Shown here: one piece after another, positions 8,937 through 46,456 of the stretch
How the letters are laid out: every line of letters starts with the position of its first letter
Position numbering within the stretch: position 1 is the first letter of the stretch
Virus record (IMG/VR): IMGVR_UViG_3300033145_000307
Coordinates: 1-61,950 of that record
Reading direction: 5' to 3' (one strand)
Length of the DNA stretch: 61,950 bases
Origin: a virus
Lineage: Duplodnaviria; Caudoviricetes
Program-made: the position numbers and the translations under genes
The notes under the pieces: generated by a model
What the model saw: only the letters and a program-made list of their open reading frames with translations
Databases searched by the model: none
What the model was told of the DNA's origin: nothing

Positions 8937-9311
8937 TTAAGAAAAATCGTCTACTGTACGGGCGTACGGATCGAGTTCAATGTCTACGTGAATTGAACTT
9001 CCAGTTCCCGGAGTAGCGATTGCACTCGCCTGGACCTTGATCTGTCCACCGGACGGTATCACGGTGTTTCCAGTGCTGGCATTTTCAGCCCACGTAGCAG
9101 CAGCTCCCGCCGCCATTGCTGCGCCAAAGGTTGCCGTACCCAATGTAGTCCCGCTATAGGAAATCGTTAAAACATCGTCATTCCCGAAATCCATGTGCGC
9201 TCTCGCCCTAACATCCGCAATCGTACACCGGAATGGAGCCGTACAGTAATAGTCTACAGTCCCACTTGATTTCCCAAGGACTTCCATAGATATAATGTTG
9301 TCTGTAATCAT
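8937..9311 (-). CDS. Putative capsid decoration/cement protein, paralog 2
   Basis: 124 aa, downstream of capsid gene; about 80/124 identical to 9342-9716 (manual count). Confidence 0.6.
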   Translation of the reverse strand: MITDNIISMEVLGKSSGTVDYYCTAPFRCTIADVRARAHMDFGNDDVLTISYSGTTLGTATFGAAMAAGAAATWAENASTGNTVIPSGGQIKVQASAIATPGTGSSIHVDIELDPYARTVDDFS

Positions 9312-9341: not shown

Positions 9342-9716
9342 TTATGCAAAATTGTCATCGGTTAAAGCACCGGGGTCAAGTTCAATATCCACATGGATTG
9401 TACTGCCCGTCCCAACAGCCGTAAACTGAGATGCGGTTACTTTAATAGCCCCGCCTACTGGAATAACAGTATTTCCCGAACTCGCATCCTCCGTCCATGT
9501 TCCCGCAGCGCCAGCCGAAACGGATGCTCCAAAAGCAACAACTCCAAGCGTGGTACTTCCATACGCAAGCGTGATAGTTTCAGAGTCTCCGGGATCAACA
9601 TGGCACCTTGATCGAACCGTTCCAATCGTGCATCTATATGGAACGGTGCAATAATAATCCACGGTTCCGCTTGATTTTCCAAGCAGTTCCATAGAAATTA
9701 CATTTCCTGTAATCAT
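9342..9716 (-). CDS. Putative capsid decoration/cement protein, paralog 1
   Basis: 124 aa, immediately after major capsid gene; Gly/Ala/Thr-rich. Confidence 0.6.
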   Translation of the reverse strand: MITGNVISMELLGKSSGTVDYYCTVPYRCTIGTVRSRCHVDPGDSETITLAYGSTTLGVVAFGASVSAGAAGTWTEDASSGNTVIPVGGAIKVTASQFTAVGTGSTIHVDIELDPGALTDDNFA

Positions 9717-9788: not shown

Positions 9789-10760
9789 TTATGAAGGTTC
9801 GCTCAGGGTCGTATGTCGCACATGAGCTTTCCTGTGCATACAAACAAGCTGACCAATCCAACGGGTATTGGCTACCCACAGATCGGGTTGCTCTTTGTCA
9901 TACTCCCACTTTGGCACCGTGAACTTGTAATCCTTGTGGGTCTTCATCTTCAGATAACGAAGATTCAGCCCGTCACAATACCCAGAGGTTTGTTTGTCAT
10001 CAGATACAACCGGAGCCCCACCGAAAAGAACGTTGTCAAATCCGGCATTTACCAAATCAACGTCAGAATATCTCGCCTGTACTTGAAGAGTTCTCTCAAA
10101 TCCATCCTTCAGGGTATCAGTCGTAATATAAAGATTCGGTTTGTCAGATTTATTCTGTCCGATATTCGGGGATCTTCGCATTGCCTGAAGCACCTTAAAC
10201 GAAATTGCCTCGGATGTGGTAGTCACATTAGCCGCCCACTCAGACATGTCATCTTCAGCGATTGAGCCGTATGCCGTTGCAGTTACAGTGCTAAACAGAT
10301 TGCCAAGCCCAAGGATTGAATTGCTGTCAGCAGCGGAAGAATAAATATCAGTTCCCATCTTGTCTCTTGCGGTCTTCTGAATGTTCTTCACCTTGCTTTG
10401 TGCAATATCAACCTTGGCTGCATCCCCTTCAACCTGAACATGATCGTTAAGATCAAGTGCGTTTGAAGAATAAATCCCTGCCCATCTGAATCGTGCAGCA
10501 TTTAGGATGGTTTTCTTGCTCTGTGCAACTTTGGTTGTGTTTCCATATGAACCACTATTTGAGTTTGCATACTCAAGTATAGCTTTGATCTTTTCTCCGC
10601 CATCGACGATTTCATTAGGCTGAACCATGTTGGCTTCCATGCCACCCTTACCCATCAATTTCCAAATCAGTACATTATCTTTGAAATAGATGTCTTCAGG
10701 GATAGCATTTTCGTAATAATCGTCTGTTATGGCTTGTGCTTCACTAAGCGTTAAGGCCAT
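9789..10760 (-). CDS. Major capsid protein (HK97 fold)
   Basis: 323 aa after portal and scaffold; 'DGGEKI', 'GLGNL', 'PNLYITT', 'AGFDNVLFGGAPVVSD' typical of podophage capsid proteins. Confidence 0.85.
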   Translation of the reverse strand: MALTLSEAQAITDDYYENAIPEDIYFKDNVLIWKLMGKGGMEANMVQPNEIVDGGEKIKAILEYANSNSGSYGNTTKVAQSKKTILNAARFRWAGIYSSNALDLNDHVQVEGDAAKVDIAQSKVKNIQKTARDKMGTDIYSSAADSNSILGLGNLFSTVTATAYGSIAEDDMSEWAANVTTTSEAISFKVLQAMRRSPNIGQNKSDKPNLYITTDTLKDGFERTLQVQARYSDVDLVNAGFDNVLFGGAPVVSDDKQTSGYCDGLNLRYLKMKTHKDYKFTVPKWEYDKEQPDLWVANTRWIGQLVCMHRKAHVRHTTLSEPS

Positions 10761-12195: not shown

Positions 12196-14181
12196 CTATT
12201 CCTCCTTCCTCTCAACATTTTGTGGTGGTTTTCCTCCCTGTGCTTCTCTCGGATTACCAGCAGACACCTTCTGCGTTCCAGCCCCCTCCTGCGGTCTATT
12301 CCCCGGCCCTCCTTGTGGCTCTAATAAATACTGTCTCAATGCTAAAGCGTCTTCTTCCTGCATGCCTGCTGCGATAAGGATTTGCAGGGCCTGGTCCAAT
12401 TGCCCCTCTCCGGCCCTTTCAATAATTTGTTTCCACCCAGGGAATCCAGTATGCTCAAGGAGAGCTTGTCTATCTATCGCCCCTAATTGATAATATTTCT
12501 CAGCTTGTGCCGCCACCTGAAGGCTTGTCTTTGGCATCGTACTGCCGGACTCGACCACATAATTAAATTTTCGACCTACAAGATTGACTCCAATTATGCC
12601 CTTCGTTTCGCCCTCAACCTCTAAAGTCTCGTACTTTATGCCAAAGTTTTGAGTAAAGGATATATTGCATTTCCCCCTGAACTCTATCAGATTATCAACC
12701 ATCTCAATCTTATGCTGTATCAGGACAGCGTTTCGCTCTTGTAAAGCCACGATTGCAGAAGCCGCAACAACACCCTTTGGCCCAACCCCCCTGTCAGCAT
12801 CTTCAATCTGATAAACTCGATCAAAGAAGTTAATAAACATATCAAGAATAGTGAAAAAGTTAGCCGGAAGATTCGGAACAGTCTCAAATCTAATAAATTG
12901 GGAGGCTTGAACATTGGTCGGCATTAAAACAAGATTTGGCTTGTTGTTTATCATCTCCCGTGTAATACCACAATTCTTTGGAATAATAAGCGGCGGGAAC
13001 ATTGCTCTTGCAGCCCAGGCTCCGACCTTGCTAATTAATTCATCAATTTTATAATTGAGATCCCCAACTTGCTCTGCTGCCGAAAATCCCCAAATATTTG
13101 TGGTGTCTTCATAACTGTTTACTTTTGTGAACGGGAAATGATCGTACAAGTAAGAATATTGAGTTGCTTCGGGTGGTAATTCGGGGTTAATGTTCGGATT
13201 GGGCTTGTCGTCTAAGACAATCGGTTGCTTGATATTTTTATCTTTTGTCTTGCTACCGCTTCCCGTGAGAGTAATTACCCTAATCCCCCCCGGATATTTC
13301 GGAACCTCTATTTCTTTAATAAGGATATCTCCGGTTTCTTCGTCCACCAGAGGTTCGCCTGTTTCTTCATCCAAAATTGGTTCGTCAACTTTCTCTGTTG
13401 AATAGTCCCGAATCCAAATCTCAATAACAAGCGTTCTGCCCTGTCTGATATCAAAAGATTTCTTCCCTGATTGCTCAACCTTGTTATACGTTCCATCATA
13501 CCTTGCCGCCCCTTCCCGTGAAGCCGAAGGAATTGGCTTTTTTTCTTCTCTTTCTTCGCCTAACAAACTATAAACATCGTCAGGTTCTACCCCTGAGACA
13601 TTAAACATTTTCTCAACGGCTTCCACCAATTCAGGATAGCCATGACAAATATACGGACAATCTAAAGAAATGTCTTCCCAATTTCCAGGTGCAGGGAAAA
13701 AGGCGTATGGGTCTACAATGGAAATGTCGCCCCTTTGCTTTTTGAAGTCATAATACGCCTTTTCAATGGTAATCCCATATTGTTCCATTGCAAGAACGCT
13801 GATGCCAAGTTTTTGTTTCTGGCTCGTGTCTTTCCACCATTTTCTATTCTTGGCGGTTAAGAGGTTCGCTGAACCATCATCGTCCCCATCAAGGTCAACT
13901 ACTTCGGCAATAGGATTACGTGCCGTGACGTTCGCCTTTGTGCGTTCTACGTTGGCAAAGAACAGGTTAATCGTAACCTTGCTTTGGTCCTTCTTGCTTT
14001 TGTCCTTTTGCCAATGATCGCCACGATACAGCTTATAGTTTTCCATCCATCGTTCAGGAAGCATCAGGCGGTCTCGTTCGTCACGGGCAAGATCGAAAAG
14101 ATTCCACATAAAAGGGCCTACGTCTTTATGCCCTTCAGGTGGGAGATTAACCAAGTTCCATTTATCGCTTATGTTAGGCAT
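12196..14181 (-). CDS. Portal protein
   Basis: 661 aa between terminase and scaffold; 'INLFFANVE..KANVTARNP', 'VDPYAFFP', 'IWGFSAAEQV', 'AASAIVALQE'. Confidence 0.85.
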   Translation of the reverse strand: MPNISDKWNLVNLPPEGHKDVGPFMWNLFDLARDERDRLMLPERWMENYKLYRGDHWQKDKSKKDQSKVTINLFFANVERTKANVTARNPIAEVVDLDGDDDGSANLLTAKNRKWWKDTSQKQKLGISVLAMEQYGITIEKAYYDFKKQRGDISIVDPYAFFPAPGNWEDISLDCPYICHGYPELVEAVEKMFNVSGVEPDDVYSLLGEEREEKKPIPSASREGAARYDGTYNKVEQSGKKSFDIRQGRTLVIEIWIRDYSTEKVDEPILDEETGEPLVDEETGDILIKEIEVPKYPGGIRVITLTGSGSKTKDKNIKQPIVLDDKPNPNINPELPPEATQYSYLYDHFPFTKVNSYEDTTNIWGFSAAEQVGDLNYKIDELISKVGAWAARAMFPPLIIPKNCGITREMINNKPNLVLMPTNVQASQFIRFETVPNLPANFFTILDMFINFFDRVYQIEDADRGVGPKGVVAASAIVALQERNAVLIQHKIEMVDNLIEFRGKCNISFTQNFGIKYETLEVEGETKGIIGVNLVGRKFNYVVESGSTMPKTSLQVAAQAEKYYQLGAIDRQALLEHTGFPGWKQIIERAGEGQLDQALQILIAAGMQEEDALALRQYLLEPQGGPGNRPQEGAGTQKVSAGNPREAQGGKPPQNVERKEE

Positions 14182-14431
14182 GTTGTCCCATTTTTTCTAC
14201 AAGCAATTTTAATCTGTCGGCCATTTCTTGTGGGCCTCGCAAACTATCCTCTCCGAACCATTCAATAAAATGCGCATGTTTTAGACCATCAAAAGTACCG
14301 TCACAATAATCCGCGATAATTTGATCTATTCCTTCGCTAACTTCCTTCATTTTTTCGGGTACTAAAATTTTCTCAAGACAAGCGCTTACGTCTGCTGCGT
14401 CTGCTTCAATGTTTGGTAAATCTATTCCCAT
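14174..14431 (-). CDS. Hypothetical protein
   Basis: 85-aa ORF with RBS, overlapping portal start. Confidence 0.55.
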   Translation of the reverse strand: MGIDLPNIEADAADVSACLEKILVPEKMKEVSEGIDQIIADYCDGTFDGLKHAHFIEWFGEDSLRGPQEMADRLKLLVEKMGQHA

Positions 14432-14451
14432 TATTCCCCCTCTTTTTCCAA

Positions 14452-14793
14452 TTAGACAATCCCCCGAACTACGGGAACGCCCTGTATGAGAACGTTGTGC
14501 ATCCCGGCATCAGCCAACTTCTTGTTTTTATATCTATGGGTCTGCTTTACTGAGGCTTCAATTCGATCAAAAAGCTCTGGTCGCATTTGCACAATTTTTA
14601 ATTTTTTGGCCCTAATTTCTCTGGCTAATTTTGGCCAAGTTGGTGCATTTGAAACCGGAAGCCGATTCTCTCCTGCTTTATGGCCATGTGGGTCGTTTTT
14701 AAATCCAACGCTCAAAGTCTTTCCAATAGTTCCCAACGACATTACTCCAACACCCGCAATACCCAGCGTTTTTAAAAACAATCTTCTTGACAT
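14452..14793 (-). CDS. Tat-signal protein carrying a major-capsid-like C-terminal segment
   Basis: MSRRLFLKTLGIAGVGVMSLG matches the twin-arginine consensus; C-terminal segment aligns without gaps to the capsid protein (15/36 identities). Confidence 0.7.
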   Translation of the reverse strand: MSRRLFLKTLGIAGVGVMSLGTIGKTLSVGFKNDPHGHKAGENRLPVSNAPTWPKLAREIRAKKLKIVQMRPELFDRIEASVKQTHRYKNKKLADAGMHNVLIQGVPVVRGIV

Positions 14794-14810
14794 GCCCCCC
14801 TTGTCCCTCA

Positions 14811-15176
14811 TCACTTCCCTCCCTTTTCACATTTCTTCCGATGGTTAAACAGCGCAATCGGATAATCAAACTCGGCGCCACATCCGCACACATACTTTTT
14901 CTTCTTGGGCTTTGGCTTTTCCTCAACATCCTCTATTTTGCCATTAAACCGATAGTTGCCGTCACACATAAAATTGCCACAGCACGGGTACTGAACCGCA
15001 TAGCCTTCGATACTATCCGTAATACTGTCTTGGTGTACGCCACAGAAGCCTTGTCCTTCGTCCCGATATTGCTTTTTCAGCCTGAACATGGCAGCGTTTA
15101 TGGTCTTGTCCGGATCAAAGGCATCTGTTGTTTTCAGCCAACTTTGGGTGCAATGTGGGCATATTACGTCAGGCAT
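14811..15176 (-). CDS. Zn-finger hypothetical protein
   Basis: CPHC, PCCG and CGCG...H...C motifs. Confidence 0.6.
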   Translation of the reverse strand: MPDVICPHCTQSWLKTTDAFDPDKTINAAMFRLKKQYRDEGQGFCGVHQDSITDSIEGYAVQYPCCGNFMCDGNYRFNGKIEDVEEKPKPKKKKYVCGCGAEFDYPIALFNHRKKCEKGGK

Positions 15177-15465
15177 TAGAATCTCCCTCTTTGATATTCG
15201 TCATTCCCTCGTTGGCTTGCATCTTAAACCGACTATTGAACCGCCCCACAATACTTGGAAGTTTCGGTTCTTCTCCTGGCTCAGTCTTGTCTGCAAACTC
15301 ATCCTCAAGGTTGAACGCCTCGCCCTTGGGTTCTTTCAGGGCAAACATTGATTCATAGGGTTCCCTTTTGGTCTTAAACACCACGAAAGCCCCTAAAGCA
15401 AAAGCTGAAAGTGTCGCAAGCCACCCGAATATCATTCCCCACACGAACCATTGCATTGATTGCAT
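15169..15465 (-). CDS. Membrane-anchored hypothetical protein
   Basis: N-terminal hydrophobic helix followed by KTKR. Confidence 0.6.
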   Translation of the reverse strand: MQSMQWFVWGMIFGWLATLSAFALGAFVVFKTKREPYESMFALKEPKGEAFNLEDEFADKTEPGEEPKLPSIVGRFNSRFKMQANEGMTNIKEGDSNA

Positions 15466-15475
15466 TGTTCTCTCC

Positions 15476-15805
15476 TCAATTCATCCCAACTCCAGGCAAC
15501 ACAAGATTGCTCATAAGTTTGAAATAAGTTTTATACAGGTCACCCTTTTCGTCTACAACTTGTACGCTCAAAGCATGACCCATGTTGATATCCACATAAT
15601 TGCGATAATTCTTGTTCTGCTCAACCTTTGCTAATTGAATCTGTGTACTTCCATTTTGTTGCGGTAGATACCTAACTACACAGGTGTTTTCTAACCGAAG
15701 CCAAGCGTCTCCCAAATAATGTTTAAAGGCTTCATCCTTGGCTTGCTTACCTAAAAACTCATACTTTGGTGTTACAACATGCAAAACTTTTGACATAATT
15801 CCCAT
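15476..15805 (-). CDS. Hypothetical protein
   Basis: 109-aa co-oriented ORF. Confidence 0.5.
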   Translation of the reverse strand: MGIMSKVLHVVTPKYEFLGKQAKDEAFKHYLGDAWLRLENTCVVRYLPQQNGSTQIQLAKVEQNKNYRNYVDINMGHALSVQVVDEKGDLYKTYFKLMSNLVLPGVGMN

Positions 15806-15885
15806 CCTTTTGTATTGCCGGAGAAATCACCCGCCCCGGCATCGGGGGGCGCAAAGGAGGGGGGAAAAGCGCCCAGAGGTTAAAT

Positions 15886-16119
15886 CTATTTTATGATTTT
15901 TTGCATCCAAAATTTACCAGTTTCCTGATTAAAGCGTCCAATGTACTCAGTTATTGGTGGTGGCGAGGGCGCTTCTTTAATTTGTGGCTCTGGCAAGCTG
16001 TTCGTAAACGCCATCACTCCATAAGCCAGTGGGACGGAGAGCAATCCGCCAACAATAAGCCCTATCACAATCTGATTCTTAATTACAGGACTCGTTACAT
16101 AATCCAACAGTTTTCCCAT
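15886..16119 (-). CDS. Small single-pass membrane protein
   Basis: One TM segment, Pro-rich linker; GGAGGGG RBS. Confidence 0.55.
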   Translation of the reverse strand: MGKLLDYVTSPVIKNQIVIGLIVGGLLSVPLAYGVMAFTNSLPEPQIKEAPSPPPITEYIGRFNQETGKFWMQKIIK

Positions 16120-17242
16120 GTTTTCCCCCTCCTAACATTGCCAACCAAGTTATAGCAAGCAACCCATTGACAGCGTTCATTCTAAACATTGAATTTGTCG
16201 AACAACAAAGCACGATAACGATTAAAGCCGTAAACTGTATGGCGTTCTTTCTGGTAAACTTCCATACAAAATTCCCCAAATATCCACTTACAATTACAGC
16301 AAAGCCTACGCCCATCTCTATTAATCCATTTACAAATGTATTATGCAGTCGGGTCCAGGTTCCATAATGTCCGGGCAATAAATGGATATTTGCTTCAACT
16401 AATTTTCGACTGATTGCTTCCCAATGGCCCAAACCACACCCCCACTTCCAATGAGGCAGGTATATTTTAAAGGCGTTTTTCCATACAATCCATCTATCGC
16501 TGGCATGTGGGAAATCAATAAATAGCCAGAATAGCCCAAACAAGATAATAGAGGGGACAATGACCCAATAATGTCCTAACACACAAGCATAAAAGATTGC
16601 GCCTATTGTCGTAGCTAATACGCCATTAAAAGAGGATGTCATTGCCAATCCAAAGAAAACCATAGGAAGACAATACCAAAGCTTGATATCTTTGATAGTG
16701 ACATAAGCCCTTCCTCGAAATCGCAAAACACAAGAAGTCGGCAAAGAATATATTGTACGGTCCCTTAAAAATGCCGGAAAACACAAAGCAAACAACGCTG
16801 ACCCCTCATTGGGGTTAAACATCAATCCACACACGTCCCCTGAGAACAGAGATGGTATCTTAAAATATTGAATAAACGTAGCCATAAAATGAGCAAAGGC
16901 AATTACGCATATAACATCCATCAATACTTTTTCATTCCCAAAAGAATGTATAAAAAAGTACCATCCAAGCCCGAAAAGCACACATTTCAAAGTAGCTTGC
17001 GATTCAACTGTAACCACAGGAACAACATGCGAAACAACTGCTAACAACATAAACAGCGCTACCCATTTATTGATTCCCCAAAGAACTGCAAAAAACACAA
17101 TCAGGACCCCCACTTGAAATAAGCCAAGAACAAAATCGCGCCCTTTTCCCATTTCAAGTGGAAGCCTGGTAATAGCAACCATAAACAGCATAATCGCTAT
17201 CGCGGGTGCTATAAATTTACATTGTTGAGTTACAGGTTCCAT
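16079..17242 (-). CDS. O-antigen ligase / O-oligosaccharyltransferase (Wzy_C) family polytopic membrane protein
   Basis: About 10 hydrophobic segments; 'GLMFNPN', 'DRWIVWKNAFKI', 'WGCGLGHW', 'RLHNTFVNGLIEMGVG' match the Wzy_C signature (R..W, G.G.G, H-N...E.G). Confidence 0.75.
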   Translation of the reverse strand: MEPVTQQCKFIAPAIAIMLFMVAITRLPLEMGKGRDFVLGLFQVGVLIVFFAVLWGINKWVALFMLLAVVSHVVPVVTVESQATLKCVLFGLGWYFFIHSFGNEKVLMDVICVIAFAHFMATFIQYFKIPSLFSGDVCGLMFNPNEGSALFALCFPAFLRDRTIYSLPTSCVLRFRGRAYVTIKDIKLWYCLPMVFFGLAMTSSFNGVLATTIGAIFYACVLGHYWVIVPSIILFGLFWLFIDFPHASDRWIVWKNAFKIYLPHWKWGCGLGHWEAISRKLVEANIHLLPGHYGTWTRLHNTFVNGLIEMGVGFAVIVSGYLGNFVWKFTRKNAIQFTALIVIVLCCSTNSMFRMNAVNGLLAITWLAMLGGGKHGKTVGLCNESCN

Positions 17243-17960
17243 GCGTTCCCTTTAACTTTAAATTAGCAGACTCATGGCTCGTAGCATTAAAAATATCTAC
17301 CGTTACCCACGTTCCTGCGATGCAAGCTGTTTCACCAGTTGCATTAAGTGTCAAAGTTAAAACTTCGTTGGATACGTCAGGGTTGCTGGCTGAACCCATC
17401 AATACTTCTGATTGTTCAATTGCTGTAGCATCAAATGCTACTCCGTCATTGTTGACCCATATTCTCCAGTCCAATGCCCCAGCAATCCCAACATCTGTGT
17501 CGGAAGAAACTAAGCAATAAATTGTCAAGCCACTTACATAAGTGCTTGGGAGCCTAAATGTAGCCTGGATTGCTCCGGTCTCACCACTATTATCCCACGT
17601 AATGCTCGGAATATTGTCATCATCACCAATATCGGGAGCGGTATTTTCGTCAATATCGTCACCACCATCAACTGCCCAACCAGCCATCGGGAGGTAGATC
17701 TCGCGGATTACGTCAGCGATTTCAGTTGCGCTGATAAGCCCGGATCCAAAGGCAGCTGCATCGAAATACGCTTTAATGCTCTGTTGAGTGGCTAACCCTT
17801 CGTCGTCGTCACTCCCCATAGCGTCTTCATCATAAATGTCATACGTTGCAAGCCCACCACCTACAGTAACAGCCTTGTCGGCTTCCGCCGCACCCATCAC
17901 AAAAGCCGGGGCCAAGGCCAGCATTAAAGCCAAAAACATCCCTAACAATCTTTTCTTCAT
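17217..17960 (-). CDS. Acidic exported/virion protein with signal peptide
   Basis: MKKRLLGMFLALMLALAPAFVMG-AA; AGGAGG RBS; 'LATQQSIKAYFD' motif resembles phage fibre proteins. Confidence 0.65.
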   Translation of the reverse strand: MKKRLLGMFLALMLALAPAFVMGAAEADKAVTVGGGLATYDIYDEDAMGSDDDEGLATQQSIKAYFDAAAFGSGLISATEIADVIREIYLPMAGWAVDGGDDIDENTAPDIGDDDNIPSITWDNSGETGAIQATFRLPSTYVSGLTIYCLVSSDTDVGIAGALDWRIWVNNDGVAFDATAIEQSEVLMGSASNPDVSNEVLTLTLNATGETACIAGTWVTVDIFNATSHESANLKLKGTHGTCNSTM

Positions 17961-17990: not shown

Positions 17991-19553
17991 TTAATCTTCC
18001 AAATTAAAGGCTTGATCGCTCTCGCCTTGACCTGTTACGTTTAGCCAATCTATTTCGGCTTGTGATAATCCTTTTTTTGGTTCATCTAACAATACGGGAG
18101 CGGCGAATGTTAACGCCAGCGCATCCGCTAAATCAGGAGAAGCCAATCCCCTGCTTTTCATATCTTTTTTCTTTTCAAGCTGTAATCTACTTTTGCCGTC
18201 AAATCCGTATTCTACACCGATTAAGTCGCTTTTAAGTTCTTCTTCGTCTGGGATTGAACCACCAGCACCTAACCAATCTTTCATTAATTGCCACATTTCA
18301 GCCCGTAAATTCACAAATTCATTGGCTTTTGTAGCTCTTTCTCCGGCATTAACCTCATAAATAATATCAAACCCTAATTGTCTTAGTCGGTCACAAACAC
18401 CGGCACCAATCCCAACAGAATCCACAAATACTGTCTTGGGCTTCCACTCCTTTATCTGGCCTGCAATATGCCCGGAGAACTCCATTGTATCAATTTCACG
18501 GTATGTCAATATTTTATGGGTCTGTAACCCTTGCCGAACATAAATAACGCTCTGGTCGTCACCAAATCGTGCTACATCAACGCCCATAAGGACCGGAGCC
18601 CACCCCCAAACATCTCGTAACTGATCATATCGTTTAGTAACGGCACCATCTACAACGTCCTCACCAATAAACTGAGTTGTGGCAGCTTTCGGGAATTTCC
18701 CCAACACCCTGATTCGTACAAAGTCGCTGTCATCGCCATAATCATCAATCCACGCTTGAAGTTGTATTTGATTGGCTTTCTTGGCAGTTCGTGAATCAAT
18801 CGCTCTTCCTGACCATCTATGCCTAAATTTCCCCCAACATTCCTTGAATCGGCCTGTATTCCGTGTTGGATTACCGAAAACAACCCAAATTGCTCCAGGG
18901 GTTGTCATTGCACCCTCTGTGGTTTCCCAAATTATATCCGGGATGTCAGAGGCTTCATCAAAGATCATCAAGACGTGTTTTTCGTGAGTGCCGGCAAACG
19001 ATTCAGGACGATCCTTTGACCACGGAATTGCAGAAGCAAACCAGGTTTCTCGATCATCCTTCTTGTATAGTTTTGTAGCTGTCCATTCAAAAACAGCCTT
19101 GTTCTTTGCCAGCTTGTGCCACTTTGCAAGTTCACGCCAAGTTTTTGTCTCAAGTTGATTCTTGGTGTTGGCGGTTACAACTATCTGTGGATGTTCTCTT
19201 GTGGTGATAAACCAGTATATAATCCAAGCAATTAGAGTAGTTTTTCCAATGCCGTGGCCTGACCTTACAGCCTCCCGAATTGCCTCGTTTAAATGCCCTT
19301 CTTCTTGTCTTTTTGTGGCTTCTCCAAGTTCTTTTAATATTTCGGCCTGCCAAACATCCGGGCCTTCCTCGTCCCTTAGAATCCCCTCTCCCCAACAAAA
19401 GACATATTCAACAAACCCCAAAGGATCATGGAAGAACTTATCATATTCCTTTTCCGCCAAATACCCCTCAACCACCGCAGCATCCATCTTCGGCGCAAAC
19501 AGTTCCGCCATCTTGTCGATGTCCGGTAGGGCTATGTTGGGTTGTGGTGTCAT
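17991..19553 (-). CDS. terL: Terminase large subunit
   Basis: Walker A 'RSGHGIGKT', Walker B 'LMIFDEAS', 'FGNPTR', nuclease 'GVDVARFGDD' and 'SPDLADALAL'. Confidence 0.95.
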   Translation of the reverse strand: MTPQPNIALPDIDKMAELFAPKMDAAVVEGYLAEKEYDKFFHDPLGFVEYVFCWGEGILRDEEGPDVWQAEILKELGEATKRQEEGHLNEAIREAVRSGHGIGKTTLIAWIIYWFITTREHPQIVVTANTKNQLETKTWRELAKWHKLAKNKAVFEWTATKLYKKDDRETWFASAIPWSKDRPESFAGTHEKHVLMIFDEASDIPDIIWETTEGAMTTPGAIWVVFGNPTRNTGRFKECWGKFRHRWSGRAIDSRTAKKANQIQLQAWIDDYGDDSDFVRIRVLGKFPKAATTQFIGEDVVDGAVTKRYDQLRDVWGWAPVLMGVDVARFGDDQSVIYVRQGLQTHKILTYREIDTMEFSGHIAGQIKEWKPKTVFVDSVGIGAGVCDRLRQLGFDIIYEVNAGERATKANEFVNLRAEMWQLMKDWLGAGGSIPDEEELKSDLIGVEYGFDGKSRLQLEKKKDMKSRGLASPDLADALALTFAAPVLLDEPKKGLSQAEIDWLNVTGQGESDQAFNLED

Positions 19554-19784: not shown

Positions 19785-20495
19785 CTAATCCTTATATCGA
19801 CCATTCAGCCGTTTTCCTAAAGTTTCGCAAGCCCTTGTAAGTATTTGGGAGCTTCTTGACTCGGTTATCTCGAAGAACTCCCCGATCTCTTTCAGCGTAT
19901 GTTCCTCCCAGAAATATAGCCATACCATCGTTTGCGTACGTTCCGGAAGAGTGCCGATTGCGCCTTGTAGCTCTTGATTGCGCTCTTTCTCGTCCAATAG
20001 AGAGTGCGGTGTTTCTTCATCGATAAACGCATCAATATAACTCACTTCGTCTGATTGTTCTGGGCCGTCCTCGGTATTAAATAAAACATGGTTATCAAAA
20101 CTAAGGGTCTGCCTTCCCTGTATTTTTACCTGAAGCTCATAAAATTCATCAAGCTCAAGCCCCATTTCTTCAGCTACTTCGTGAGCCTCAACGGGCCTTT
20201 TCAGTCTTTCGGTGGCATCAGAGATAGCCTGCTTGACCCGCTTTATCCGTTTCCTGGTTAACCGTGAAACCCCGTCACCGTCCCGTAATTCGTCAAGGAT
20301 CGCCCCCTTGATTCGATGACGAGCAAAGTTCTTGAGTGAGACCTTGGCCTTTGGATTATAGCTTTCTGTTGCATCTAACGCCCCCAACCACCCGGCCTGT
20401 AATAAATCATCAAGAAGAACATTGGGCGGTGTCTTGGCGTAATATTGACTTGCCAGGGATTCTACTGTTGGCTGTAGGGTTAGGGGGTCTAGCAT
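19785..20495 (-). CDS. fliA: RNA polymerase sigma factor, FliA/WhiG (sigma-28) family
   Basis: 'DDLLQAGWLGALDA', 'FARHRIKGAILDELR.GD.VSR', region 4 'LYFWEEHTLKEIGEFFEITESRSSQI'. Confidence 0.85.
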   Translation of the reverse strand: MLDPLTLQPTVESLASQYYAKTPPNVLLDDLLQAGWLGALDATESYNPKAKVSLKNFARHRIKGAILDELRDGDGVSRLTRKRIKRVKQAISDATERLKRPVEAHEVAEEMGLELDEFYELQVKIQGRQTLSFDNHVLFNTEDGPEQSDEVSYIDAFIDEETPHSLLDEKERNQELQGAIGTLPERTQTMVWLYFWEEHTLKEIGEFFEITESRSSQILTRACETLGKRLNGRYKD

Positions 20496-37901: not shown

Positions 37902-38460
37902 AATATTATTTCCCTTACCAGTTCATCATTGTTGTTTAGAAAATGAGCAAATTCCCCGCTTTCAAGTAATATACATTGATATTGCGTTTCTTTTTTATGG
38001 GGCCAAACACTATTATAGTAGTATTCAGACTTCACAGCCCTAACACCATTCGTTGTTTCAAAAACAGCCCCCCTTCGTAAATCTCTTAGTTTTATATATT
38101 CGCTCATTTCTTCACCCGACCCTTCTCAATCACAAACACGCCGATATTCTCTGGCACTTGCGAAGGGCGTTCTCCAACGATGGTAGCAAGAATAGTCTTC
38201 TGCTCATCCTTGGCTTTCTGCACGTAGTTGAAAATAGACCTCCCATTCCAAGAAATCCGAATCCGAACTCGGTGCGCTGGTTGCTTGCCGTACTTTTCAT
38301 CGTATGCGTCATTGCTCGTATTATGAAATTCCGGTATCTGTGTCATGGGCTATTTCTCCCTTAAAACATCTTCTCAATCAACCGACACGCCCCGTACAGG
38401 CCGCAAAAGGCCCACGCTACGAGGACTACCATTAATGATGCTACGTTGCTATTCGTTTTA

Positions 38461-45988: not shown

Positions 45989-46456
45989 TTATCCCCCTAT
46001 CTTCTCTTTGATCTGGCCGTGATATCTAACGCTCGGCAAAGACGCATGAATGAATCTTGCCCTTCCGTTATGTTTCCGGTATAATATCAGTTGACCTGTC
46101 GCATGGGGCAAATTGAACTTTATCCAATTAAAGACATGCTCGGTTGCAATTCTGTCCACGCTTCCGTCCTCTGCCTCCACATAAAAATCAACCGCCATTG
46201 TTCGGAGATGGTCGGAATCTGTTGACCCAGGGATTAAACTATTGAGCCTAATGTTTCTACTCCACGAAGTAGCAATTATGGGTTTTTTGATATAATTACG
46301 TGCTGGCTGAAGAACCGTATATATCATAATGGCTACAAGTTGTTCTTCTCTCCAATCAAGATGGATATCAGCAGCCACTTCTGGATGATCGGCAGATACT
46401 ACGGCTTCATGGAACGCGAAATTACTGTGCGGTAGCATTACAGCGTTGCTTTTCAT
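45989..46456 (-). CDS. Endolysin, peptidase M15A-like
   Basis: 'PIIATSWSRNIRLN..IPGS..SDHL..MAVDF' and 'FIHAS' (H, D, H zinc ligands). Confidence 0.75.
   Translation of the reverse strand: MKSNAVMLPHSNFAFHEAVVSADHPEVAADIHLDWREEQLVAIMIYTVLQPARNYIKKPIIATSWSRNIRLNSLIPGSTDSDHLRTMAVDFYVEAEDGSVDRIATEHVFNWIKFNLPHATGQLILYRKHNGRARFIHASLPSVRYHGQIKEKIGG

Follow-up and report, generated by a model that had tools for sequence, protein, structure and literature searches.

A singleton phage mini-protein that combines a Tat-type leader with a piece related to the major capsid protein

Tat (twin-arginine) leaders present the motif S/T-R-R-x-F-L-K, followed by an uncharged and weakly hydrophobic stretch of about 12-20 residues and by a polar c-region that often contains a basic residue. 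Phage accessory genes of the 'moron' type are found in variable slots of structural operons. Capsid proteins are reportedly recognised by bacterial defences, as in the case of the Gol region of T4 gp23 with Lit, and in that of CapRel. The gene described herein encodes a mini-protein that resembles each of these systems in one respect and departs from it in another. As in Gol/Lit and CapRel, a short conserved piece of a major capsid protein would be the biologically relevant unit; in those systems, however, the piece lies within the full capsid protein and triggers the defence, whereas here it belongs to a separate gene with an export-type leader. Like the 'moron'-type genes, the mini-protein gene is a lineage-specific insert between conserved genes and is absent in relatives, but it differs from them in lacking promoter-like or terminator-like sites above the level of shuffled sequence, in looking translationally coupled, and in being composed in part of material from one of the phage family's structural genes. 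In contrast to the Tat substrates, its passenger is a fragment of a cytoplasmic virion protein and not an enzyme or a cofactor protein, and its export is a prediction.

The window, by which we mean the whole stretch of DNA that was analysed, coincides with a complete virus record of IMG/VR that measures 61,950 bases and has 114-base direct terminal repeats, a GC content of 44%, and two tRNA genes. Nearly all genes of the record are located on the minus strand, and no tyrosine integrase was found in its 61,950 bases. The initial annotation had drawn attention to a minus-strand ORF of 113 aa at 14452-14793, and the sequence indeed reads as it was given there. The frame is open from GTG 14814, and besides this codon and ATG 14793, the latter of which leads to the 113-aa form, it offers ATG 14811, from which a gene of 119 aa (14452..14811, minus strand, with the stop at 14452-14454) can be read. 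We regard ATG 14811 as the likelier start, since a Shine-Dalgarno-like GGGAGGG (14817..14823, minus strand) stands 5 nt upstream of it, since it overlaps the stop codon TGA (14811-14813) of the upstream gene by a single base, and since the same form is present in the protein collection. This overlap between stop and start suggests that translation of the mini-protein gene is coupled to that of the upstream gene. In the region 13800-15600, promoter-like and terminator-like sites were no more numerous than in shuffled sequence; given this and the coupled start, the mini-protein is probably made together with the late structural proteins.

The predicted product is a very basic protein of 13 kDa with a pI of about 11. 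The codon-usage log-odds of its frame amounted to +0.163 per codon, with values of -0.15 to -0.50 in the other five frames, and the score was positive in both halves of the gene and comparable to those of the conserved small neighbours (+0.07 to +0.18). The GC content of the gene equals that of the genome, with no GC anomaly, so that the gene does not look like a fresh import. These properties bear on the possibility, which we consider rather unlikely, that the gene is a functionless young ORF, namely one that illegitimate recombination left behind in a variable slot and that is open by happenstance. Such an origin would hardly be expected to yield 119 open codons of which both halves score like real neighbours with all other frames negative, nor a Shine-Dalgarno-like site in front of a coupled start, and the genome-like GC content, as that of a gene not freshly imported, likewise speaks against it.

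The N-terminal 30 residues (14722..14811, minus strand) make up the putative Tat-type leader, which consists of an n-region MRDKGGM, the motif SRRLFLK at residues 8-14 of the 119-aa form (14770-14790), and 16 uncharged, G/T/S-rich residues, TLGIAGVGVMSLGTIG, followed by K. The N-terminal match to S-R-R-x-F-L-K that had been claimed is therefore present as SRRLFLK, in agreement with the S/T-R-R-x-F-L-K consensus and near the N-terminus. In a six-frame translation of the window, the looser pattern [ST]RRxF[LIVM] occurred three times, and the copy of the mini-protein was the sole one that heads an ORF with an uncharged stretch behind it. The heptapeptide MSRRLFL near 38204 (38130-38312, minus strand) was dismissed as a chance occurrence, as it lies in an alternative frame of an 80-aa gene and is written with different codons.

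Like the Tat signal peptides described by TIGR01409 and PF10518, the mini-protein displays the full consensus, a short basic n-region, an uncharged stretch of 16 residues, and a basic residue thereafter. Unlike them, it reached 14.6 bits with TIGR01409 (residues 8-23, E 0.033), which is below the cut-off of 16.7 bits, returned no family at E <= 10 in a Pfam scan, including TAT_signal (PF10518), and carries no A-x-A site. As for the latter, the initial annotation had noted its absence and had considered that the protein may stay membrane-anchored. No A-x-A was found within residues 1-60, but the leader offers the small-residue cleavage candidates SLG/T, TIG/K, and SVG/F, and since cleavage at SLG/T or SVG/F is possible, the missing A-x-A does not show membrane anchoring. 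Feature matches of the ESM Atlas to Tat-signal clusters gave a score of 0.89, which serves as a lead only. By its sequence features, the N-terminus of the mini-protein probably represents a twin-arginine leader, though it stays under the cut-off of the curated profile. The chance appearance of a full Tat consensus followed by a fitting uncharged stretch was estimated to be very unlikely, which is a further argument against a functionless ORF.

The mini-protein's leader is similar in style to Tat leaders encoded in a Desulfobacterium MAG that includes a related phage contig, in which 15 Tat-signal (TIGR01409) matches over the cut-off were counted, some of them with leaders of the same style. 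Desulfobacterium is a possible host, a point that we give as context only, the binning of phage contigs being unreliable.

In IMG/VR, the pattern MSRRxFLKxxG gave 65 matches (loci L033-L097, e.g., L072:3980-4783 and L045:7091-7672), each with an uncharged stretch after it. For 63 of them, no stop codon interrupts the frame over the preceding 60 or more codons, and the motif often comes after a conserved GGR(I/V)GF.EGG. The motif MSRRxFLK(L/I/G)xGG(L)A..P(V/I)VGK(F)FK, which is widespread in IMG/VR, is thus either embedded in larger proteins, whose lengths range from about 500 to more than 2400 aa, or the mark of a nested start; its interior position was confirmed for three records. A search of viral databases for further proteins joining a Tat signal to a capsid fragment had been proposed at the outset; with MSRRxFLKxxG in IMG/VR it brought up none, as 0 of the 34 shorter products carrying the pattern matched a capsid PHROG. 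Nor did any of the 34 match a PHROG of known function. TIGR01409 was matched by four of them, and weak matches elsewhere in their own locus were seen for two of 50.

Following the core of the leader, residues 24-66 (14614..14742, minus strand), which comprise the leader end and a linker, bear a weak likeness to one FG-GAP_2 repeat, which we take as a lead only. Besides the mini-protein itself, a HMMER scan of 1.84 billion representatives returned 14 large proteins, each of them matched to residues ~20-67 in 4-8 separate stretches. The E-values are inflated, because 4-8 near-identical repeats are summed per protein; the match region overlaps the leader. All eight of the large matches that were scanned proved to be FG-GAP_2 repeat proteins, whose single repeats are 27-32% identical to the mini-protein. 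A profile of 107 FG-GAP_2 repeats scored 13.8 bits, a value that 10,000 shuffled versions of the first 68 residues did not reach (10.1 at most), in a region that again overlaps the leader; the Pfam FG-GAP_2 model (PF14312) found no match in the mini-protein. The window's 1994-aa protein was rejected as the source of the N-terminal half of the mini-protein, its alignment being gapped and the pairwise E being 0.016.

Residues 69-116 (14464..14607, minus strand) constitute the putative capsid-derived piece, the counterpart of which lies at capsid positions 205/206-252/253. The major capsid gene of the window (9789..10760, minus strand) encodes 323 aa, in which residues 206-253 are the counterpart of the piece, and its product was identified by a match to the major head protein family phrog_9953 (E 4.2e-21) and by 146.3 bits with NF033394, capsid_maj_Podo (cut-off 80), over positions 1-310. 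Two tandem genes for 124-aa paralogues that are 64.5% identical (8937-9311 and 9342-9716, minus strand) are located directly downstream of the capsid gene.

The ungapped alignment on which the capsid relationship had originally been based turned out to be exact (15/36 identical, P0001 74-109 versus capsid 217-252, 30.0 bits), and the homologous stretch is longer than the 36 residues first quoted, extending over 47-48 residues. Taken alone, the pairwise match appears borderline: searched against the window's 549 six-frame ORFs, it had an E of 0.001, which corresponds to about 0.5 expected in an all-against-all comparison, and the pair of mini-protein and capsid was absent from the all-against-all comparison of the window at E < 1e-3. 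This weakness after counting all window pairs (E 0.001 per query) would suit the view that the likeness to the capsid arose by chance, or exists at the level of a motif, and is not the outcome of common descent, as would the lack of any significant DNA-level likeness between the mini-protein gene and any capsid gene, and the result of a word-seeded search with residues 60-119 against longer proteins, in which none of 19 candidates was matched at E <= 10.

The comparisons with capsid profiles point the other way. Related loci were fetched by means of the capsid protein, 19 from IMG/VR (61-73% identity) and four from genome bins (46-63%). A profile of 18 clade capsids placed residues 69-115 of the mini-protein on positions 205-251 without gaps over 47 columns (22.6-22.8 bits), and when this profile was run against all 549 ORFs of the window, the mini-protein was found with an E of 1e-6 and the next ORF reached 4.6 bits. 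Shuffled controls and HHalign had been named as checks of the alignment, and it withstood both: 10,000 shuffles attained a maximum of 9.7 bits, compared with 22.8 for the mini-protein, and hhalign gave a probability of 89.9 and an E of 1.7e-6 over 48 columns (profile 205-252, equal to capsid residues 206-253). A six-frame search of the record with a 9-row capsid alignment identified exactly two places, namely the capsid gene and 14467-14607 (E 2.4e-6). Control profiles built for five families of the clade (portal, scaffold, 103-aa gene, 98-aa membrane protein, and zinc-finger gene) gave at best 9.0 bits (E 0.055), and none of the five had a second match in the window.

Among the NCBIfam models, capsid_maj_Podo was the top match for the mini-protein (E 0.0019), with residues 64-115 on positions 190-241 of 311, at 17.5 bits over 52/311 positions and hence far under the cut-off of 80. 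The mini-protein resembles members of capsid_maj_Podo (NF033394; PHROG 9953) in this alignable stretch, in which nine of the 13 clade-invariant residues are kept, and differs from them in that it covers only about one sixth of the capsid protein, lacks all other parts of the capsid, and is strongly basic where the capsids are neutral or acidic. In tblastn searches with the mini-protein, the capsid gene was matched in the same register in 17 of the 19 IMG/VR loci (E 1e-5 to 0.02), the remaining two having only capsid residues 260-323 present, and in all four of the genome loci, where the best match was that in L023 (18/36 identical, E 1.2e-6). An ESM Atlas model of residues 37-119, which is of low confidence (pLDDT 0.55), had four capsid clusters as its nearest neighbours (TM by query 0.61-0.68). 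Sequence searches of the PDB with the capsid profile and with the mini-protein yielded nothing useful.

With the clade HMM, hhalign, and NCBIfam agreeing on one ungapped register (residues 64/69-115/116), with nothing comparable emerging from the shuffles and from the five control profiles, with capsids matched in all 21 loci that hold that part, and with capsids as the structure-based neighbours of the low-confidence Atlas model, a mere chance resemblance is very unlikely. Residues 69-116 evidently have their ancestry in a conserved part of a major capsid protein of the capsid_maj_Podo type, and the interpretation that the mini-protein is chimeric, with a Tat-type leader joined to a piece derived from the capsid, is supported.

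Regarding the origin of the piece, the initial annotation had spoken of the phage's own capsid protein. Compared with 13 distinct capsid versions, the piece is identical at 13-19 of 48 positions, with 16/48 for the phage's own capsid and 19/48 for that of L023, and is thus no closer to the former than to the capsids of relatives; the source of the piece would accordingly be sought in the capsid family, and is not demonstrably the phage's own gene. A recent self-duplication of the capsid gene was ruled out on the grounds that DNA-level likeness is lacking and that the phage's own capsid is no closer than those of relatives. A decayed whole capsid gene was ruled out as well, since no capsid-like sequence was present in the other frames of 13900-15400. 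The piece is one element of the capsid family, in a copy that is either old or fast-changing.

That element is small. The earlier designation as a 'mini-capsid domain' could not be upheld, as the homology spans about 48 of 323 residues and hence a sub-piece, not a whole fold unit, with an NCBIfam score of 17.5 against a cut-off of 80. In the capsid protein, the counterpart element is situated 65-110 residues after a long helix (residues 113-142) and ~70 residues before the C-terminus, the helix being taken from an AlphaFold2 capsid model that was built on 9 aligned sequences and has a mean pLDDT of only 32. From general knowledge of the fold and from its position in the chain, we take the element to correspond to the A-domain of HK97-fold proteins. 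Nine of the 13 columns that are invariant among the 13 distinct capsids are kept by the piece, namely K207, L217, D219, E222, R230, A239, G240, N243, and V252. Such preferential retention of invariant capsid residues is another feature not expected of a functionless ORF.

In other respects the piece has departed markedly from its relatives. Among themselves, the capsids are identical at 24-45 of the 48 positions (median 32), and the net charge of the piece is +7, compared with -4 to +2 for its capsid counterparts. This divergence beyond that of any capsid pair (13-19/48 versus 24-45/48), together with the charge moved to +7, favours a further alternative, which we hold to be somewhat improbable, in which the mini-protein would be an exported or membrane-anchored accessory protein and the captured capsid DNA would have served as raw material, since remodelled into a basic, envelope-acting domain without recognition of the capsid. 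The retained invariant residues could in that case merely hold a local helix-strand fold. The entry of other phages, the timing of lysis, or the cell surface may be named as examples of what such a protein would act on. No family match points to an envelope activity, however; the distance of 31 kb to the endolysin gene indicates that the mini-protein gene is not part of a lysis cassette, and the failure to find a tyrosine integrase makes prophage exclusion unlikely.

In gene order, the mini-protein gene is placed between the large terminase (17991-19553) and the portal (12196-14181). Its slot is bordered upstream by a conserved zinc-finger-like gene with CxxC pairs (14811..15176, minus strand) and downstream by the portal gene (12196..14181, minus strand), which shows 45-61% identity to the portals of relatives in tblastn. 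Within these borders, the window contains the mini-protein gene and an 85-aa ORFan (14174..14431, minus strand), which share the lineage-specific insert and occupy 629 bases in total. The ORFan has a codon score of +0.319; the protein collection returned only the ORFan itself, and no match was found in the 23 related loci. The zinc-finger and portal genes abut in six of the nine viral loci that show both. In the other three, which are near-identical (L012:4050-4344, L014, and L016), the slot is filled with ORFs of 56 aa and 61 aa, the latter lysine- and glycine-rich, that are unrelated to anything in the window. The 85-aa ORFan was examined as a relative of the 56-aa slot ORF of L012 and found not to be related. 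Small orphan genes seem to have a hot spot at this position between the zinc-finger and portal genes. The mini-protein gene is an accessory gene, specific to its lineage, within the late structural operon.

The stretch between terminase and portal at 15169-17960 (minus strand) carries cargo directed to the envelope. It encodes an acidic protein of 247 aa with a Sec-type signal and a weak match to a tail-fibre PHROG, the N-terminal 70 residues of which are conserved in L002, L017, and L022 (56-68% identity), as well as a polytopic membrane protein of 387 aa without a family, a membrane protein of 77 aa, and a membrane protein of 98 aa that is conserved in relatives. In L004 (record G002, 61,688 bases, complete), the terminal repeat lies less than 500 bases upstream of the portal gene, a position that corresponds to the region holding the variable slot and the membrane-protein cargo in the window. 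A sigma-factor-like gene (19785-20495, minus strand; phrog_351, E 1.7e-25) adjoins the terminase, and an endolysin-like gene (45989-46456, minus strand; phrog_894, E 2.5e-11) is located 31 kb from the mini-protein gene. The occurrence of a Sec-signal protein, the 387-aa polytopic protein, and two small membrane proteins between terminase and portal implies that envelope-directed cargo is usual there, and this again would be in line with a protein acting on the envelope.

No relative of the mini-protein turned up in about 15 billion proteins, so that it stands as a singleton. A search of 5.8 billion clusters returned only the mini-protein, no relative beyond itself was found among INPHARED phages and IMG/VR, and scans of JGI metagenomes with the mini-protein and with the portal revealed no relative. 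A mini-protein-like ORF was present in none of the 23 related loci, and the records of four relatives, one of them complete, contained neither a match to the Tat model nor a second capsid match. The statement of the initial annotation that no equivalent had been described is in keeping with full-text literature searches, in which no combination of a Tat leader with a phage capsid fragment was found among the papers listed. This isolation speaks for a functionless ORF: the mini-protein is without relatives in all collections searched, the slot is empty in six of nine viral loci and holds unrelated small ORFs in the other three, the neighbouring 85-aa ORF is an orphan likewise, and the capsid piece is not an autonomous domain.

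Our best guess, which we put forward tentatively and with more doubt than confidence, is that the mini-protein is a membrane-directed mimic of a conserved capsid element. This reading is favoured because invariant and partly charged capsid residues are preferentially retained, and because the gene is probably co-expressed with the capsid gene. According to the mimic model, the mini-protein gene would be expressed along with the capsid gene by translational coupling, and the leader would take the product to the inner membrane or to the Tat machinery, either as an uncleaved signal-anchor or with cleavage at an atypical site. The capsid piece, still having the invariant residues of the element, would then act as a mimic by occupying a partner whose usual target is this part of the capsid protein. 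That partner would most likely be a capsid-sensing host factor, with capsid subunits of the phage itself or of a co-infecting phage as the alternative; in either case, the mini-protein would hold its partner at the membrane.

The main difficulty for the mimic model is one of topology, as true Tat export would remove the piece from the compartment that contains the capsid protein and the known sensors. This difficulty would be avoided if binding preceded export, or if the leader only anchored the mini-protein. Furthermore, a mimic of the capsid could activate a sensor rather than block it. The model is also weakened by the facts that the mini-protein is a singleton, that such an ORF is missing from all 23 related loci, that its TIGR01409 score is below the cut-off and Pfam TAT_signal is not matched, that the piece amounts to a fragment, short of a fold unit, with an Atlas model of low confidence, and that the MSRRxFLKxxG pattern brought up no second protein of this design in IMG/VR.

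In a broader proposal, to which we assign a distinctly low probability, the mini-protein would be one case of a widespread phage strategy in which short conserved pieces of proteins sensed by bacterial immunity, here the capsid protein, are produced as separate mini-proteins behind a Tat-type leader. The leader would in this broader proposal drag the bound partner to the membrane or out of the cytoplasm, with the result that capsid-sensing defences would be disarmed or the assembly of rival phages disturbed. The version of each lineage would be assembled from that lineage's structural genes, and the absence of sequence relatives would thereby be accounted for.

As the mini-protein is a singleton, the weight of this single instance is limited, and what would count most is an enrichment of such genes, or its absence, across phages. 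If the gene is not functional, the locus documents how orphan ORFs originate in variable slots of phage structural operons. If it is functional, it would provide a clear case of a new gene made of a fragment of a structural gene and a bacterial-type export leader, and would mean that phages can reuse a small conserved element of a head protein as a free-standing, membrane-directed mimic. It would then bear on how phages respond to capsid-sensing defences, or on the competition between co-infecting phages.
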